Assembly: GCF_024223415.1 (NCBI RefSeq)
Contig: NZ_CP100501.1
Direction: 5' to 3' (one strand)
Source: Escherichia coli
GTDB taxonomy: Bacteria > Pseudomonadota > Gammaproteobacteria > Enterobacterales > Enterobacteriaceae
DNA length: 64,000 bases
In this document: piece after piece, positions 21,237 to 30,763 of the stretch
Layout: each line of letters begins with the position of its first letter
Numbering within the stretch: the first letter of the stretch is position 1
Notes under the pieces: generated by a model
Database searches by the model: none
What the model was told of the DNA's origin: nothing
What the model saw: the letters and a program-made list of their open reading frames with translations, nothing else
Made by a program: the position numbers and the translations under genes

Positions 21237-22335
21237 TGTGATTATCCTCGGTATCTGTGGCTTTCAGGAACAGGCTGACGGTAGTGGCGTCTTTCAGGAT
21301 GCCGGACGGCAGGTGCCAGCCGGTATCGGATAACACCCATGGGGTACCGCCAAAACCGAACTGGCGGAAAGCCTGGTTATTGACATCGATGGCAGCACGA
21401 GCAGCGGTCAGACACTTTTCATCCGGTGCAGCCGGTGCATCGCCGGTGGGTGCCATACCACCGTCTGCGGAATACAGCTGATGCCATCCGGTCGCCCGTT
21501 TTTGTGCGTCCGGTTCACACAGCAGTGGCGCAGTCCGGTTTGTGCTGGCCTCTCCGCCGATTACGGAGACCGGATAAATCACCACGCTGAATTCCCGGGC
21601 CAGTTGCTTAAGCGCGGGCTCCAGAAGACGGCAGTTGATGCATGCGGGGTCAAGGAAGGCGTAGAGTGTGCGTTCATGACCAGTGGAGAGATTAATGGTG
21701 AACATACCCCGGTCCGCGTTGCGTTTAAGTACAGTGGCCAGATTACGGCGGGCTTCAGCGACCAGAGTATTTTTGTCTGCTGTTATCGCCGGGGTAGCGG
21801 ATGTCTCCTGCATTTCCTGTGATGCCGGGTGAACGATTTCATTTTTCGTCTCTGACGGGGCTACTGACCGGACAATTTCCTTGTCGATGTGTAATGGTGC
21901 TGTTTCTGTTACGGATTCTGTGACAGGTACCCTGAGAGGGGAATCGCTGTCCGGTTTCAGTAAAATATATCCGGCTGTTACCGCTGTCAGAAGTGCCAGC
22001 ACTAATCCTGCACCGTATATCAGCCCTCTCATGAAGCTGGTTTTCCGGGCAGGAAGTTCTGCATATGCCGCGCTCAGACAGCTGTCAATCGCGGAGAGCA
22101 TTCTGCCGATGTGATGTCCGGGACGTTCAGTATCAACGGTATCAACAAGCAGTGTTTCGGTTATTTCACGAAAAGGGGTGCTGAAGGACAGGTGCATCAG
22201 CCTGTTATTACGGTTAATCAGTGCGCCCAGTTCTGTAACCGGCAGGATGGCAATAACCTCCTGACCACCGTCAGGGTACAGGGCGGTCAGGGACAGGTGT
22301 TTATTGTTCAGTGTTGCAGTGTAGCGGATGGTCAT
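21217..22335 (-). CDS. trbB: TrbB, thioredoxin-fold disulfide isomerase-like transfer protein
   Basis: 372 aa; CINC (CxxC) motif; TM segment; synteny. Confidence 0.75.
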   Translation of the reverse strand: MTIRYTATLNNKHLSLTALYPDGGQEVIAILPVTELGALINRNNRLMHLSFSTPFREITETLLVDTVDTERPGHHIGRMLSAIDSCLSAAYAELPARKTSFMRGLIYGAGLVLALLTAVTAGYILLKPDSDSPLRVPVTESVTETAPLHIDKEIVRSVAPSETKNEIVHPASQEMQETSATPAITADKNTLVAEARRNLATVLKRNADRGMFTINLSTGHERTLYAFLDPACINCRLLEPALKQLAREFSVVIYPVSVIGGEASTNRTAPLLCEPDAQKRATGWHQLYSADGGMAPTGDAPAAPDEKCLTAARAAIDVNNQAFRQFGFGGTPWVLSDTGWHLPSGILKDATTVSLFLKATDTEDNHNEPASR

Positions 22336-23666
22336 TGTGCTTTTTCCTTGTCGGCGGGATGCTGTTTTTCGGTGGTTTCGGTGGTTTCGGTGGTTTCGGT
22401 GGTTTCGGTGGTTTCGGTGGTTTCGGTGGTTTCGGTGGTTTCGGTGGTTTCACCAGTGTCAGTGTCTTCGTCGTTATCATGGCGGCGGGGTATCACGTCA
22501 TCCGTGAGTGACCAGCGGGTCCTGATCTGACGTTTACGATCGCGATCTGGCTGAGGTTCGTCCCATATCAGGCCCAGCCCCAGCATGTCCCGTCGAAGCC
22601 CTTCAATGGCCTCTTCCACACAGGGTTCCGGGCAGGGGAGGCCGAGACGGCTGGCTTCATTTTCTGCCCGGGCAACGGCCACCACGCCGGCCCCTTCGAT
22701 GAAGCCTTTTGTGGTGTTTGCCCGGTGAAGGGCATAGAAGAGCGTCCGGTCAACGCCCTTGAGCCACAGCCAGTTCGGAGGCGTCAGGCGCAAATCATGT
22801 GCGTAAAGCCAGACCAGACCGCTGCGAACGTAACGGTGCTGCCTGAGCCACTTTTGTGCGCCTTCTGTTTTGATGACCCGGATAAAGGCGTTTCTGGCCA
22901 GTGAATACACCGGCGTGCTGAAACGCCCCTGGTCCCGTTTACTTTTGAGCCTGCAGGAGAGATTGAGGTTGTTCATCAGGGCTACCGCTGCTTTCCGGTC
23001 ACCGAGGAAGAACTGCAGGCCAAAGATGGCAAAGAGCGCTTTTTCATGTGGGGCCATGTCTTTCCAGCTGGTCAGTGGTTGCCCCAGTTGCGCCATGAAG
23101 CACTGGCGTGTGGACGCAACATCGAGCTGCATGTTGCGGATAAGGTTGTTCTGCTCCACAAAGGCTTCGGGGGTTAGTGCGACACGGCGCTCGGGACGTT
23201 TTTGTCCGTGGAAGAGTCTGTTGTTGTCTCCGTCAGCCAGAACGGGGGCGATCGCCGGTGACAGAGCTGAAAAAATATGGGGCAGTGTGTGGATATTCAG
23301 TGGCCTGCGGGTAAAACGGGGCTGGGCCGGATGGTGAAACCACATCCACAGAAAGCCGAATGTCATGGGAAGCAGAATCAGCCAGAGGATCCCCACTGTC
23401 CGGGACATAACATCCAGCCACTGGCTGAAAGTGATGGTTGCCGCGTTGTTAGCAGTGATGGCCAGCAGGTTGTAACGGGGGACGGCAAAGTTGTGAAAGG
23501 GCCCCCAGTCAATCATGCCCCACAGTGTGTGCAGGATCAGGCAGGAGGCGAAGACGATTTCAGGTAAAAAGCGCCAGATGATAATCGCAAAGAGCAGGCA
23601 TATGGCACCGACGATATACCATATAGCCATTGGATCTTCGGCGGCAGACGTCTGTTGGTAAGACAC
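22332..23666 (-). CDS. trbA: TrbA (DotM-like inner-membrane transfer protein)
   Basis: 444 aa; N-terminal TM helices; synteny; C-terminal (ETT)9 repeat. Confidence 0.75.
   Translation of the reverse strand: MSYQQTSAAEDPMAIWYIVGAICLLFAIIIWRFLPEIVFASCLILHTLWGMIDWGPFHNFAVPRYNLLAITANNAATITFSQWLDVMSRTVGILWLILLPMTFGFLWMWFHHPAQPRFTRRPLNIHTLPHIFSALSPAIAPVLADGDNNRLFHGQKRPERRVALTPEAFVEQNNLIRNMQLDVASTRQCFMAQLGQPLTSWKDMAPHEKALFAIFGLQFFLGDRKAAVALMNNLNLSCRLKSKRDQGRFSTPVYSLARNAFIRVIKTEGAQKWLRQHRYVRSGLVWLYAHDLRLTPPNWLWLKGVDRTLFYALHRANTTKGFIEGAGVVAVARAENEASRLGLPCPEPCVEEAIEGLRRDMLGLGLIWDEPQPDRDRKRQIRTRWSLTDDVIPRRHDNDEDTDTGETTETTETTETTETTETTETTETTETTEKQHPADKEKAQ
22371..22451 (-). repeat. 9 x 9-bp perfect tandem repeat (ggtggtttc) inside trbA, encoding (ETT)9
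   Basis: Direct reading of sequence; in-frame in trbA C-terminus. Confidence 0.9.
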
Positions 23667-23976
23667 GGGGATTCCTCCATAGATGAATGGATAAATTTCG
23701 GGATTAAGTCGGGTGGCATGAATGCGAATCAGCGCCGGTAATAACCGGACAGGAATGAATTCAACAGGACATTTTTACAGAGAAGAGCGAACGGCAGAAG
23801 GTGGTGGGAGACAGGTACAAAAAAACCGACTGGTGAGGCCGGTTTTTTTGCGATTCCGGGGTGGAGTTGGTGGCTCTGACCGGAGGAAGTCTCTTTTCAG
23901 CTAACAATGAGAGAGCTGTTGTGACAGGCAATGTAAGAGTAAGCAGCAGTGATTTCCTCCATTGACGGAGAAACGG

Positions 23977-24060
23977 ATGATTAACCTGTTAATCATCGTT
24001 CTCAGGGCGGTTGTTGCTGTGGCTAACGCAGTGATAGCTCTCCGGGAACTGGTTGACTGA
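23977..24060 (+). CDS. possible 27-aa hydrophobic peptide (small membrane peptide or type I toxin-like)
   Basis: GGAG SD 7 nt upstream of ATG; MINLLIIVLRAVVAVANAVIALRELVD; below ORF-track size cutoff. Confidence 0.25.
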   Translation: MINLLIIVLRAVVAVANAVIALRELVD

Positions 24061-26687: not shown

Positions 26688-26941
26688 CGGTGGGGTACAA
26701 ACGCAGAAATTTTGTTGTCATTACATCATCAGTTTTAGCCTGCAGAGACGCTGAAAAATCAGCGTTTTCAGACCCTGTTCAGGTTAGTGAATATTCTTGC
26801 CTGGCCTTTCGGCAATATCAATCCCCTGATGTGTGCACACGTAGTCACTTTCCGGCTTTATTTCTGTCCCTGACACAAAATACGTGGTGGCATGAAAAGG
26901 ATTGTGGCGGACAGGAAAACGATTAGAATAGCGGCGGGCGC

Positions 26942-27235
26942 TTGAGGCTGTATGCCGAAAGCGTTTTGTGGACGGCATGTAGCAGAAAGCCCCAGGCGAT
27001 TTTTTTATCAATCAACCCAGGGCCCACTGTAATGCCTAGACAACATTATAGTAGCCCGATGACGGCCGAAAGGCAATGGAGGGGCTGCGATGCCACAACG
27101 AACGTTTTTAATGATGTTAATCGTCGTCTGTGTGACGATACTGTGTTTTGTCTGGATGGTGAGGGATTCGCTTTGCGGATTTCGTATCGAGCAGGGAAAT
27201 ACGGTGCTTGTGGCAACGTTAGCCTACGAAGTTAA
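26942..27235 (+). CDS. pndC: PndC-like overlapping reading frame (mok analogue) of the pnd locus
   Basis: ORF overlapping pndA in another frame, as in hok/mok architecture. Confidence 0.4.
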   Translation: MRLYAESVLWTACSRKPQAIFLSINPGPTVMPRQHYSSPMTAERQWRGCDATTNVFNDVNRRLCDDTVFCLDGEGFALRISYRAGKYGACGNVSLRS

Positions 27236-27242
27236 ACGTTAA
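27090..27242 (+). CDS. pndA: PndA, Hok/Gef-family type I toxin (50 aa)
   Basis: MPQRTFLMMLIVVCVTILCFVWMVRDSLCGFRIEQGNTVLVATLAYEVKR; hydrophobic TM plus conserved Hok-family C-terminus; below ORF-track cutoff. Confidence 0.8.
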   Translation: MPQRTFLMMLIVVCVTILCFVWMVRDSLCGFRIEQGNTVLVATLAYEVKR

Positions 27243-27868
27243 CGGGCAACACGGCGGTAGAGAATCTGCCGCCGGATTGTTGCGAAGGCTGACCTCAATG
27301 CGCCTTGTTTGTCTTTTTTACCGGACGACTGCTGGTTGCTGCTGTCCGGCAGCTATTATTTTTTCCGTCCTGTGCGTCATCAATTATGACAGTCGCTCTC
27401 ATTTAGTTGTCTCTGGTTAGATGTATTATTATATATTTTCGGGGTAATTCGATAAAAGTTATCCACTTCAGCACCAGACTGAATGATATATGCAATAAGA
27501 TCTAAACGATGAATCTCGTATCGTGTACGTAACTCCATTATTTCACGCCATGGAGTACCATGTCGTGCTGGAAAATTGCTGCGGGATTCAGACATGATTT
27601 TATCTTTATGTTTTCTAGGTACTGCCTTGAGTGTGTGGATATGATAATTATTTATAATGATATTGTTATCTTTTATAGATAACTGATATGCAGAATTGTA
27701 TTGATTTTGTCTACAGTGGGCAAGACAGTGCTAAGAATTTGTGGGGAAAACATAGAGACTCCATGCTGCGTCCTGAGATAGACGGCAGACAGGCATTCTG
27801 CCTGAAAAGAAAAAGCCGGTTCAGAGAAAACCGGCTGACGGATTATCGTCTAACAGTTGATAGCTACC

Positions 27869-28516
27869 TCAAAATACTTCTGCAACAGGAACACCGGCAA
27901 CTTTTTCCCACTCTTTAACCCGATACCGGATCATCTGTGGGAAACGTTCCTTGTACTCATATCCACGTGCAGCCATGGTGTGCATGGTGTTGGCCAGCGT
28001 CCTTGCTGAGATGCCGGAGATCTCAAGAGGAATCATCGGCAGACTCACATAGGTGGTGTGGATTTCCAGCTTGCCGTCCTCAGCAACCGTGCGGGTAAAG
28101 TTGTGAATATCCAGACCAATCACATCCATCACATTGTTTGGATAAATACGCACATACAGCATGGTGCCGTTTTTAATGTCGATCCCGAAATAACAACTCT
28201 TCGAGAATGACAGTTGCTCATAATCGCTGGTCGGCGCAAAGGGACTGCTTTCTTTTATCTGCTGAACAACCTGCTGGACTTTCTTTTTCTTCGCCCTGGT
28301 TCTTAGATATAGCCAGAGTAATGGGAGGATAATCAGCGTTGAACATCCATATGTTATCATATAGATATTAGGGGAGGAGTATCTGGCGTAGCTAATACTT
28401 AATGTACCTAATATTGCATATATTAATAGGAATGGTATTCCAATAATAAAATAAGCATTGCGGATCAGGTAATAATATGCCCACCAGGAAGGATATCTGT
28501 TTTTTGTTGTACTCAT
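27869..28516 (-). CDS. excA: ExcA-like entry-exclusion inner-membrane protein
   Basis: 215 aa AT-rich gene immediately downstream of traY; two N-terminal TM helices; position as in IncI1. Confidence 0.6.
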   Translation of the reverse strand: MSTTKNRYPSWWAYYYLIRNAYFIIGIPFLLIYAILGTLSISYARYSSPNIYMITYGCSTLIILPLLWLYLRTRAKKKKVQQVVQQIKESSPFAPTSDYEQLSFSKSCYFGIDIKNGTMLYVRIYPNNVMDVIGLDIHNFTRTVAEDGKLEIHTTYVSLPMIPLEISGISARTLANTMHTMAARGYEYKERFPQMIRYRVKEWEKVAGVPVAEVF

Positions 28517-28603: not shown

Positions 28604-30763
28604 TTATTGTTTTATTCCGTCTTTATCATCTCTATTAATATTTTTCAGTTTTTCTTCACGAACGCCAGGTGTTCTGCGCATATTGGTATTACCTCCGGCA
28701 ATAATATCTTTGACGGATGAAACCATATTCCCCAGCATATTAACACCGTCACGTCCGCCCAGAAAATTAATCACATGGTCAGGCAGATAAGCCTGAAGCG
28801 CAAAAACGGCCGCAACCAGCGTGGTACAGACTCGGGCATAAATCAGCAAAAATCCTGCCATGCTGAATAGCCCCGTCAGGGAGTCTGTCTGTACATTGGC
28901 CAGTGCAGCTCCAAACAACGAATTTAGAATGGTTCCGGCAGCAATGATAGCGACTGACGCAAAGAAGAACCCGAATACCATCAGCAGCGGTCTGATCATG
29001 CTGTCTATCAGGTAGATGTAACCGTAAGCGGCCCGGCTTCCCCGGTCCTGGCTTGTTCCCAGGTGGGTGGCCGCCCAGAGGGGGCCAGCAGCACATCCAA
29101 TCAGCACGCTGACTATCCAGTTACCAATGCCGGTCATCCAGAAGATAAACGGAATAAACGGCAGGTAAATGGATAACGAAAAGCCGGCACAGAACAGCAA
29201 AAACAGCAGGAAGTAGAGCGGTGGAGCGGCTGCTTCCATAAAAGCCTTTGCAGCCTCAGGTAAGCCCGTAACGGTATTAACCAGCCGACCAAAAATGGAG
29301 TTGCTGCCGGCAGTCGAAAGCACCCTGACTGTGGTATAACCCGCCCAGATGCTTTCAGTAATGCCCATAGTGTAATCACCGATATTTTTCATTTTTATCA
29401 GTGGGTTTAGTTGGTCAGTGGTTGTGCCGGTTTTTGTAAAGATTGTTGCTACATTATTTGTAAGTTCTACTCCAGGAATTGAACTTAAAATAGCACTTTG
29501 CGGATCGTTACTGCCTGCGCTGTTATATTCATTTGCTGATTTTAATGTTCCCAGTGCAGGAGTATACGTTGAGTTCTGTAGCTGTGCCTGGTAAGCCCCC
29601 TTGACTTCCTTCAGGAACTCCGTATCCCCGGCTTCGCCCAGTGACGAGACGCCACTCACAGTAGGAGCGCGGTTGGCCAGGTCTTCCAGTCGCTGGTTGG
29701 CGGTGGCAAAGGTCTGGTACCAGGCGCCCAGGGCAACCCAGCCGTAGGTGGTCAGGTAGGATTTCAGCTGCTCCCTGCGCTCAGTTTCTGCGTTATCTGC
29801 CGGCAACGCCTTCTGCACCGTTTCTTCATACCGGTTGGCAGCCTTCTGAATACGGCTTTCAATATCCGGCAGGTTGCCGTTACCCGTGTCGCGTCGGGTC
29901 CGGTACGCTGACACAAATTCCTGCGCCGCGCTGTCCAGGTCACGGAGCATGGTATCCATGGCGGAGCGCTGTGCCGTCAGAACCCCCTGATATTCCGTTT
30001 CAATGAAGGGATTGAAAAAATGGGCCAGCGCGGACTGCTTGTTACTGCCGTTTCCTTTCACGGAGAGACTCACACTCCCGCAGGTGGCGCTGCCATTTGA
30101 GACGGTGACGGTATATCTGCCATTCTCTGTCCGTGAGGATTCGCTCATGGGCGGCGTTGATGAACGTGCGGTACGGTTAAAGTCATCGAGGCCCGTATTC
30201 ATGGCGTGTTTGCACAGTTCCATCTCCAGTATTCCCCGTGCTGCCGTGCGGGTGGAGACATGTACTGGCTGTACGGTCATTGAATAGCCTTCAGCGATGT
30301 TTTCTGCCGCTGTCTGAACCATGATATTGGCGGAACCGATGCCCATGATGGATGCGCCCCACAGCATGACCAGTTGTGCCAGACTCCAGCCGGAAGCGGT
30401 GGGCACAATCATCATAAAACCGCTCACAATACTGAGCATTCCGACGACGTCCCGTCCGTTGTTAAAGACATTGCCCTGGTGTCCCGTGCGGACAGCATGA
30501 CGGATACCAATAAACAGAAACCAGACTATCCCCATCGTGGCGATAATTGCGTTAAACACCATGAACAGGTTGCCAATGATGGTGTTGCTGCTGGCTGTCA
30601 GGGGATTTGTGACCACATCACCAAAAATGGTGACCAGTGCCTGGCGCGACAGGTCATCCGGATTGGTGGCGGCACTCACAATGTCCTGATAGGTGACGAA
30701 AGCCTGTGCAGGTACGGCAGCCAGCGCCAGACCTGCACTCAGTGCTCTGGGTATGATTTTCAC
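28604..30763 (-). CDS. traY: TraY (DotA-like polytopic membrane transfer protein)
   Basis: 719 aa, many TM helices; synteny and size. Confidence 0.8.
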   Translation of the reverse strand: MKIIPRALSAGLALAAVPAQAFVTYQDIVSAATNPDDLSRQALVTIFGDVVTNPLTASSNTIIGNLFMVFNAIIATMGIVWFLFIGIRHAVRTGHQGNVFNNGRDVVGMLSIVSGFMMIVPTASGWSLAQLVMLWGASIMGIGSANIMVQTAAENIAEGYSMTVQPVHVSTRTAARGILEMELCKHAMNTGLDDFNRTARSSTPPMSESSRTENGRYTVTVSNGSATCGSVSLSVKGNGSNKQSALAHFFNPFIETEYQGVLTAQRSAMDTMLRDLDSAAQEFVSAYRTRRDTGNGNLPDIESRIQKAANRYEETVQKALPADNAETERREQLKSYLTTYGWVALGAWYQTFATANQRLEDLANRAPTVSGVSSLGEAGDTEFLKEVKGAYQAQLQNSTYTPALGTLKSANEYNSAGSNDPQSAILSSIPGVELTNNVATIFTKTGTTTDQLNPLIKMKNIGDYTMGITESIWAGYTTVRVLSTAGSNSIFGRLVNTVTGLPEAAKAFMEAAAPPLYFLLFLLFCAGFSLSIYLPFIPFIFWMTGIGNWIVSVLIGCAAGPLWAATHLGTSQDRGSRAAYGYIYLIDSMIRPLLMVFGFFFASVAIIAAGTILNSLFGAALANVQTDSLTGLFSMAGFLLIYARVCTTLVAAVFALQAYLPDHVINFLGGRDGVNMLGNMVSSVKDIIAGGNTNMRRTPGVREEKLKNINRDDKDGIKQ

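Follow-up and report, generated by a model that had tools for sequence, protein, structure and literature searches.

A pnd (pndB-pndC-pndA) locus of the R16 allele type in an IncI-type transfer region of Escherichia coli: gene layout, predicted RNA switch and candidate antisense RNA

The toxin gene, its overlapping frame and their plasmid setting

The pndA gene lies at 27090-27242 on the plus strand of the window (the whole stretch of 64,000 nucleotides that was analysed) and encodes a Hok/Gef-family membrane toxin of 50 aa, an assignment that draws on Pfam, UniRef, BLASTP and identity to R16 pndA. The frame opens with an ATG and yields the product MPQRTFLMMLIVVCVTILCFVWMVRDSLCGFRIEQGNTVLVATLAYEVKR, precisely the ORF and the peptide that had been quoted in an earlier, sequence-only reading of this DNA; at 50 aa it is smaller than the 60-aa default of the ORF lister. 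The Hok-family profile match on which that reading had staked its toxin call was found: residues 7-46 of PndA cover positions 3-42 of the 42-position Pfam model HOK_GEF (PF01848) with an E-value of 1.5e-12. Moreover, a BLASTP alignment between PndA and the Hok protein of R1-type plasmids (E 5e-12) shows 34% identity and places the SLC and AYE motifs in register, and the peptide has the features of the Hok/Gef group, namely a length of 50 aa, a hydrophobic N-terminal segment and the conserved Cys/AYE motifs. The comparison with the PndA of R16 that had also been proposed returned complete identity. Specifically, the exact peptide carries the UniRef name 'Protein PndA ... PNDA1_ECOLX', and the coding sequence equals the PndA_R16 CDS in the supplement of bioRxiv 10.1101/2025.08.07.668861 at 153 of 153 bases (27090-27242); the authors of that preprint were unable to clone R16 pndA without mutations. 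The sole failure in family membership concerns the narrower HokA and R1-Hok models of NCBIfam, which are the nearest models to PndA in that collection and whose curated cut-offs it does not reach (66.7 against 89 bits for HokA, NF007290; 41.5 against 73 bits for the Hok subfamily, NF007279). Judged by these profile scores, PndA is a member of the Hok family that belongs neither to HokA nor to the R1-Hok subfamily, and it is because of its position under both cut-offs that RefSeq gives it the generic label 'Hok/Gef family protein'. Upstream of the gene, a Shine-Dalgarno sequence GGAGG (27078-27082, plus strand), read from the sequence, stands 7 nt before the ATG, and the stretch GGGCUGCG (27082-27089) between the two is base-paired in both the full-length and the truncated predicted folds of the messenger.

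The pndC frame, the homologue of mok, spans 27032-27235 on the same strand in the -1 register relative to pndA and comprises 67 codons and a stop (27233-27235); it was placed by a shared ATG and by alignment with mok. A Shine-Dalgarno-like AGGG (27019-27022, plus strand), read from the sequence and taking part in the predicted folds, precedes this ATG by 9 nt. The sequence-only reading had drawn the overlapping frame from 26942 to 27235 on the plus strand, and such a frame is indeed present, TTG-started and 97 codons long; its start had to be moved, since the TTG is not conserved and pndC begins at ATG 27032. This ATG is the only start common to all four pnd alleles that were translated, the 67-codon frame is open in all four, the annotated mok ATG of an R1-type locus aligns with it, and 67 aa is also the length of the proteins that GenBank names 'PndC' within the same 90% cluster. 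Immediately upstream, the reading frame shifts between alleles. In an alignment of four pnd alleles, the three others carry one extra base at ~27021/27022, just 5' of ATG 27032, and a 1-nt insertion before this ATG puts the upstream stretch out of frame in 6 of 11 aligned pnd loci. In the three other translated alleles, the ATG found at mRNA position 16 reads in frame into pndC, and in the window this ATG opens a separate 26-codon ORF with its stop at 27030-27032. TTG 26942, which lies 7 nt into the mRNA and inside the tac element, was rejected as the start of pndC on this indel and frame evidence, and it represents a mechanical upper bound of the frame only, because the conserved start is ATG 27032.

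An open frame across pndA is not improbable by chance, as it occurs in 14% of synonymous recodings and in 39% of own-codon permutations; for this reason, the case for pndC is a comparative one, built on the positional homology with mok and on the start and open frame shared by the four translated alleles. Searches of Pfam and NCBIfam returned no protein-family match for PndC, including DUF5431, the name that RefSeq gives to a Klebsiella mok-like frame. When the window is compared with the IncI1-type allele, the nine substitutions within the pndA/pndC overlap are six synonymous and three nonsynonymous in the pndA frame and zero synonymous and nine nonsynonymous in the pndC frame, and 12 of the 67 PndC residues differ at 90% DNA identity. 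The ratio of six to three in pndA against zero to nine in pndC argues for selection on the sequence of PndA and, as regards pndC, on the openness of the frame only. At the sequence level, this pattern fits the accepted view that Mok-type frames matter through being translated and not through their product.

The locus lies between trbA (22332-23666, minus strand) and excA (27869-28516, minus strand) followed by traY (28604-30763, minus strand), and the same trbA-excA/traY setting, that of an IncI-type transfer region, is found in IncK2/Z and IncI1/B/O plasmid records. The plasmid of the window is an IncK2/Z-like member of the IncI complex. Over a 621-bp region it agrees at every base (100%) with pCh101, an E. 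coli plasmid typed IncK2/Z, and an IncI1/B/O plasmid shows the same 100% identity starting from window base 26828. At least six E. coli plasmid records in RefSeq contain the complete 481-nt module (26890-27370) at 100% identity. Copies related to pnd are present in 1982 PLSDB plasmids, which fall into a group at 95-100% identity (B/O/K/Z-type, including the window) and one at ~90% (IncI1-type), and a pnd locus is carried by 1216 of 5426 complete E. coli genomes (~22%), nearly always on a plasmid. The RefSeq and PLSDB records that were inspected annotate the toxin gene only, as 'Hok/Gef family protein', and none of them annotates pndC or an antisense RNA. Downstream of the pnd module, the neighbouring TnsA-like gene of the window plasmid has an internal deletion of ~1.37 kb.

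The messenger, its predicted folds and the candidate antisense RNA

A putative promoter of the pndA/pndC mRNA was read from the sequence at 26902-26929 on the plus strand, where a -35-like TTGTGG (26902-26907) is separated by a 16-nt spacer from a -10 TAGAAT (26924-26929). Ten of the 11 pnd loci share the TAGAAT box unchanged, L016 being the one without it, and the box is aligned one base further upstream than the -10 box TATGAT of R1 hok, which is experimentally supported (PMC9841398). The predicted full-length mRNA, with both ends putative, measures ~429 nt (26936-27364, plus strand) and extends from the start of an Rfam match, 7 nt after the -10 box, to an intrinsic-terminator-like hairpin (27333-27355) with its T-run (27333-27364, plus strand). 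A consensus scan of 26700-27500 called this terminator, which is common to the B/O/K/Z-type alleles, the IncI1-type alleles diverging after the fbi element described below. The same scan left uncalled both the mRNA promoter, with -35 matches of 3 of 6, and the promoter of the antisense RNA PndB, at 8 of 12, because both fall under its 9-of-12 rule, and within the scanned segment it found no PndB terminator; the promoters were placed by positional homology instead.

The leader of this messenger matches Rfam RF01794 ('sok antitoxin') at 26936-27092 on the plus strand with 125.6 bits (gathering 59, E 3e-28), over model positions 1-157 without gaps, and the last three bases of the match are the ATG of pndA. 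Likewise, in a genuine hok/sok locus of R1 type (L008, with an annotated mok and a Hok that is 100% identical) this model again hits the strand of the toxin gene, and the hit stops at the hok ATG. A match on the toxin strand that ends at the toxin ATG marks the mRNA leader holding the antisense target and not the antisense RNA itself. Its reading as an antitoxin gene was rejected, since in the window and in R1-type loci alike the match is on the plus strand and has its end at the toxin ATG. An Rfam scan had been suggested for a Sok/PndB antisense RNA; it did return a match, albeit one to the toxin-strand leader of the mRNA and not to the RNA that was sought. Together with the Pfam match, the Rfam score supports the proposal of a Hok-family toxin with an overlapping pndC frame in the manner of hok/mok. 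In the consensus structure of RF01794, positions 1-8 pair with 52-58 to form the tac-ucb stem, which belongs to the 'open', 3'-processed form of the hok mRNA (PMC9841398).

The full-length pnd mRNA (26936 to ~27364-27366) folds with a minimum free energy (MFE) of -169.3 kcal/mol and z = -6.4 against shuffles. Its 5' end is the tac element GGGCGCUUGAGG (26936-26947, plus strand), of which GGCGCTTGAGGCT is the same in pnd and in the R1 and Klebsiella hok loci; in the MFE structure tac pairs with the fbi element CCUCAAUGCGCC (27293-27304, plus strand), complementary to it with one bulged base, and this pairing closes the molecule. In the same structure GCCC (26989-26992) of the ucb or anti-SD box AAGCCCC (26987-26993, plus strand), whose AGCCCC is conserved with hok, pairs with GGGC (27020-27023) of the pndC Shine-Dalgarno region. 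In the predicted fold of the 3'-truncated molecule (26936-27288), by contrast, tac pairs with ucb at 26987-26993, as in the Rfam consensus, the AGGG of pndC is unpaired in the centroid, and the target hairpin of PndB persists. This hairpin (27026-27052, plus strand), found in both folds and in the Rfam consensus, has the pndC ATG in its stem and exposes the loop CCUAGACAA (27035-27043) with a YUNR-type CUAG. At its base a dcb-like GCCC (27054-27057, plus strand) would pair, following the Rfam consensus, with the GGGC of the Shine-Dalgarno region in the open form; the consensus pairing GaGGC/GCCuC is matched in the window by AGGGC/GCCCG, both sides being changed relative to the GAGGC/GCCUC of R1. 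Further downstream, a 3' UTR stem-loop, GGCGGUAGA-GAA-UCUGCCGCC (27253-27273, plus strand), forms in both folds and varies among alleles in its loop and in a U-G versus C-G pair of its stem; by analogy with the 3' stem-loop of hok (PMC9841398), it probably protects the 3' end of the processed mRNA. As predicted structures, the two folds reproduce the published closed-to-open switch of hok (PMC9841398).

A search for fold-back inhibition elements had been recommended in the sequence-only reading, and it succeeded, in that the tac-fbi pairing appears in the full-length MFE structure and the position of fbi is conserved across alleles. In the four pnd alleles tested, fbi is in every case the best tac duplex of the 3' UTR, at the same position, and in two hok loci the tac-fbi pairing recurs ~30 nt further downstream. 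In the two halves of fbi, CCUCA and GCGCC, a single change (in L015) was seen across the 11 pnd loci, and it is the middle or bulge bases that vary. The energy of the tac-fbi duplex taken alone is, for the window allele, ~1.5-2 sd better than that of shuffled 3' UTRs, and for this reason it does not serve as stand-alone evidence; the positional conservation and the whole-molecule fold carry the argument.

On the opposite strand, a putative PndB promoter was read at 27048-27076 (minus strand), with a -35 TTGCCT (27076..27071), a 17-nt spacer and a -10 TACTAT (27053..27048), the latter overlapped by a perfect TATAAT (27050..27045, minus strand). The two hexamers correspond in position, as homologues, to TTGCGC-17-TATCCT, the candidate promoter hexamers of Sok in the R1-type sequence, and neither box varies among the 11 pnd loci. 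PndB would start at G 27041, 7 nt downstream of the -10 box, so that the RNA would begin with GUCUAGGCAUUA, a 5' tail of 12 nt predicted to be single-stranded; a long hairpin would follow, and then a CUUUCU tail, poor as a terminator U-tract, ending near 26983. The antisense RNA had earlier been judged impossible to delimit by eye, a verdict overtaken by the bounds that homology and folding now predict: PndB would run from about 27041 to about 26983 on the minus strand (26983-27041) as an RNA of ~57-61 nt with putative ends. The candidate folds at -24.9 kcal/mol (z = -3.7), and the same architecture is obtained when its homologous counterpart in the IncI1-type allele, or the segment predicted to be equivalent to Sok in the R1-type locus, is folded. 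Moreover, the candidate is the complement of the target loop, of the ATG and the Shine-Dalgarno sequence of pndC, and of ucb.

Among the 11 pnd loci, a stretch of ~80 nt that surrounds the pndC start hardly varies except at three positions of the target loop, which is the main site of allelic variation in this set; the ~40 nt next to the variable bases are likewise nearly constant. Four loop alleles occur, CCUAGAC (the window), CUUCGAC, CAUCGAC and CCUCAAC, in all of which the U is kept, and so is the purine that stands two bases after it, a pattern that is presumably the one expected, from the hok/Sok literature, of a U-turn (YUNR-type) recognition loop. The loop alleles do not track the rest of the locus, as an IncI1-type backbone can carry the loop of the window, and this independence would imply recurrent change or recombination at the loop. 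Since each allele also alters the start of the PndB tail, the loop could influence which mRNAs a given PndB is able to neutralise. It may tentatively be proposed, with more doubt than confidence, that the three to four variable bases of the target loop and of the PndB 5' tail determine specificity and that selection maintains their diversity; because the 11 loci were chosen to span a range of identity levels and do not form a random sample, the proposal is made as a hypothesis only. If it held, the PndB of one IncI-complex plasmid would fail on the pnd mRNA of a compatible co-resident relative, and each plasmid would keep its own addiction. The idea sits uneasily with the finding that pndB is identical in 125 IncI1 plasmids (PMC5330492).

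Reading of the locus and its rivals

Taken together, the locus is, with high confidence, a copy of pnd (pndB-pndC-pndA), the type I toxin-antitoxin module of IncI-complex plasmids, with the allele of the R16 type, and a homologue of hok/sok that most likely serves post-segregational killing. What was shown in the window comprises the ORFs, the family matches, the identity with R16 pndA, two alternative predicted folds and, on the minus strand, promoter-like boxes with a hairpin. Since every feature that can be tested in silico fits the hok/sok family, and nothing separates the locus from the pnd already described, this copy is an intact and ordinary representative of a system that is already known. 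The pnd system has been recognised as a hok/sok homologue since the 1980s and is the standard addiction system of IncI-type resistance plasmids. For IncI1, the addiction system is pndBCA, and neutralising it is sufficient to cure an IncI1 plasmid (PMC5330492); moreover, post-segregational killing by the pnd of R483 is cited in bioRxiv 10.1101/2025.08.07.668861.

The mechanism proposed for the module follows by homology that of hok/sok of R1, set out in PMC9841398, and what it says of transcription, trimming at the 3' end, coupled translation, cutting by RNase III and cell death is carried over from the hok/sok and pnd literature, in which the coupling of the toxin to mok/pndC, the RNase III cut in the duplex and the death of plasmid-free segregants are on record for hok, srnB and pnd. 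A weak promoter would make a stable mRNA of ~429 nt, in which the 5' tac pairs with the 3' fbi. In this closed form ucb would hide the ribosome-binding site of pndC, leaving pndC and the translationally coupled pndA untranslated, and the antisense RNA could not bind. Slow trimming of the 3' end would remove fbi, upon which tac would pair with ucb and both the pndC Shine-Dalgarno sequence and the target hairpin would be exposed. As long as a cell bears the plasmid, a promoter within pndC would yield the short-lived PndB from the opposite strand; this RNA would bind the target loop through its free 5' tail and cover the start region of pndC, blocking the translation of pndC and hence of pndA, and the duplex would be cut by RNase III. 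Conversely, in plasmid-free cells PndB would decay first, the stored mRNA would be translated, and the 50-aa PndA would damage the inner membrane, killing the cell.

The module might be active and yet owe its main benefit to something other than post-segregational killing, for instance phage exclusion of the abortive-infection type or competition against related plasmids, a reading that appears improbable. The hok/sok system of R1 reportedly excludes phage T4, and a hotspot of variation in the antisense-recognition loop would fit selection exerted by plasmid-plasmid interaction; however, the sequence does not distinguish between such roles, which are in any case compatible with post-segregational killing. 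The latter is, moreover, the phenotype of pnd that has been experimentally documented (PMC5330492 and bioRxiv 10.1101/2025.08.07.668861).

Chromosomal hok homologues failed at post-segregational killing in work cited in that preprint, and decayed pnd copies do exist, one without promoter and tac (L016) and one reduced to ~120 nt of leader (L007), so that the locus could be pictured as a passenger, intact in sequence and functionally silent like the reportedly inactive chromosomal hok, with no role in plasmid maintenance. This is very unlikely: every element is intact in the window, the 481-nt module is 100% identical to its counterparts in at least six RefSeq E. coli plasmid records, the coding sequence is that of the R16 pndA that the preprint authors found unclonable without mutations, and the neutralisation of pndBCA sufficed to cure an IncI1 plasmid (PMC5330492). 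It is hardly credible that the 97-codon frame from TTG 26942 is the real pndC and encodes a functional protein, for although the frame is open from 26942 in the window allele, its TTG lies within tac, 7 nt into the mRNA, the 1-nt insertion throws the upstream stretch out of frame in 6 of 11 loci, the annotated mok and PndC proteins begin at the aligned ATG, and the PndC residues vary freely (12 of 67 changed, zero synonymous changes in the overlap) in a product with no protein-family match.

The reading of the locus as an ordinary pnd module brings little new biology, and its practical value lies in annotation, as pndC and the antisense RNA are omitted in public records and the Rfam 'sok' match is easily misread as the antitoxin despite its position on the toxin strand. 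The coordinates of the regulatory elements are also useful for plasmid-curing designs that supply PndB in trans, in which the loop alleles could decide whether a given PndB neutralises the toxin mRNA of a given plasmid.

Comparison with the pnd systems of R16 and R483 and with hok/sok of R1

The closest named relative is the pnd of R16 (IncB/O), with which the locus shares a base-identical pndA CDS, the UniRef entry PNDA1_ECOLX and the IncI-complex backbone group; no difference is detectable within the toxin gene, the comparison covering the CDS. The pndBCA of R483 and other IncI1 plasmids has the same architecture and the same position adjoining trbA, with ~90% DNA identity over the mRNA up to fbi and with identical tac, ucb, putative antisense promoter boxes and pndC length. 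Conversely, the PndA of an IncI1-type allele (L003) differs from that of the window at three residues (F31L, I33L, E34Q), to which the PndA of R483 adds I13, and the PndC differs at 12 of 67 residues. A 1-nt indel before the pndC ATG further separates the IncI1-type alleles from the window, some IncI1 copies carry the target loop CUUCGAC in place of the CCUAGAC of the window, and the sequences are unrelated after fbi, which is why the terminator of the IncI1 type differs.

The resemblance to hok/sok (parB) of R1 extends across the whole regulatory design. Both systems have the tac-fbi closure, a Shine-Dalgarno sequence that ucb sequesters and the switch after 3' truncation (predicted here; PMC9841398), together with a mok-like frame that overlaps the toxin gene; the candidate PndB would, moreover, resemble the antisense RNA of R1 in its free 5' tail followed by a hairpin and in a promoter placed within mok or its homologue. 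The tac sequence is identical, and ucb, the mok/pndC ATG, the putative antisense promoter boxes and the toxin ATG are aligned. In contrast, PndA and the Hok of R1 are 34% identical, the pnd leader is ~19 nt shorter than that of R1 and has a smaller 5' hairpin, and the pndC frame counts 67 codons against 70 in R1. The Shine-Dalgarno sequence of pnd reads AGGG where that of R1 reads GAGG, with dcb changed to match. Lastly, the two systems occupy different plasmid neighbourhoods, pnd being located in an IncI-type transfer region and hok/sok of R1 next to psiA of IncF.

Variation in the PndB target loop

The loop of the mRNA hairpin at 27026-27052 (+), the predicted recognition site of the antisense RNA PndB, is a hotspot of variation: positions 27035-27043 occur as four alleles among the 11 pnd loci aligned (the window and the related loci L003-L005 and L011-L017), and the surrounding segment is otherwise nearly invariant in the same set. 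A U and a purine two bases later are retained in all 11 loops. The distribution of these alleles does not follow the divide between IncI1-type and B/O/K/Z-type locus backbones.

Cassette boundaries and neighboring elements

On its left side, the conserved pnd cassette breaks off at 26828-26837, ~100 nt ahead of the predicted start of the mRNA; here the window parts from plasmids that are identical elsewhere across the pnd locus and lacks ~257 bp present in the related locus L002. On the opposite flank, many related plasmids carry a 1587-nt gene annotated as “TnsA endonuclease N-terminal domain” between pndA and excA; in the window and in the IncK2/Z plasmid pCh101, this gene is cut by an internal deletion of ~1.37 kb, whose junction maps near 27548-27552, leaving a 71-codon remnant ORF (27380-27595).

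Two pnd relatives are in decay. In pIncI1-CTX-M-14 (L016:1-625), pndA is kept and the promoter and the 5' mRNA element tac were lost through rearrangement; in pSA20043041.1 (L007:1501-1620), ~120 nt of the leader remain, adjoining trbA, and toxin gene annotation is absent.

Another type I toxin-antitoxin locus lies ~3 kb upstream of pnd (23817-24060). It comprises a match to AgrB (Rfam RF02891; 23817-23904, minus strand, 51.8 bits) and a small ORF on the plus strand (…MINLLIIVLRAVVAVANAVIALRELVD; 23962-24060), in the position annotated as “DinQ-like type I toxin DqlB” in identical plasmids.

The ALIL pseudoknot is the frameshift element of IS3-family transposases, and Rfam matches to it are found at 18042-18158 (minus strand) and 12391-12477 (plus strand). 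One match is complete (116 bits) and the other is shortened internally, without 29 model positions (63.8 bits). The two matches point to the presence of IS3-family insertion sequences in the window, one of which is possibly damaged.

Comparison with R1-type hok/sok

In pnd (26936-27092) as in R1-type hok/sok (L008:427-603), the match to Rfam RF01794 (“sok antitoxin”) lies on the strand that encodes the toxin and terminates at the toxin ATG. Automated annotation that relies on this family would misplace the “antitoxin”, with both its strand and its extent incorrect.

Ahead of pndC, the window has a 26-codon ORF (26952-27032) whose ATG follows the tac GAGG at a distance of 4 nt and whose TAA stop codon overlaps the start codon of pndC (TAATG). 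In pnd alleles with a 1-nt insertion, the same ATG is in frame with pndC, and the fused ORF spans 94 codons. The 26-codon ORF is probably due to chance, because its ATG sits in a stable stem and hok of R1 differs from the pnd of the window in lacking this start codon.
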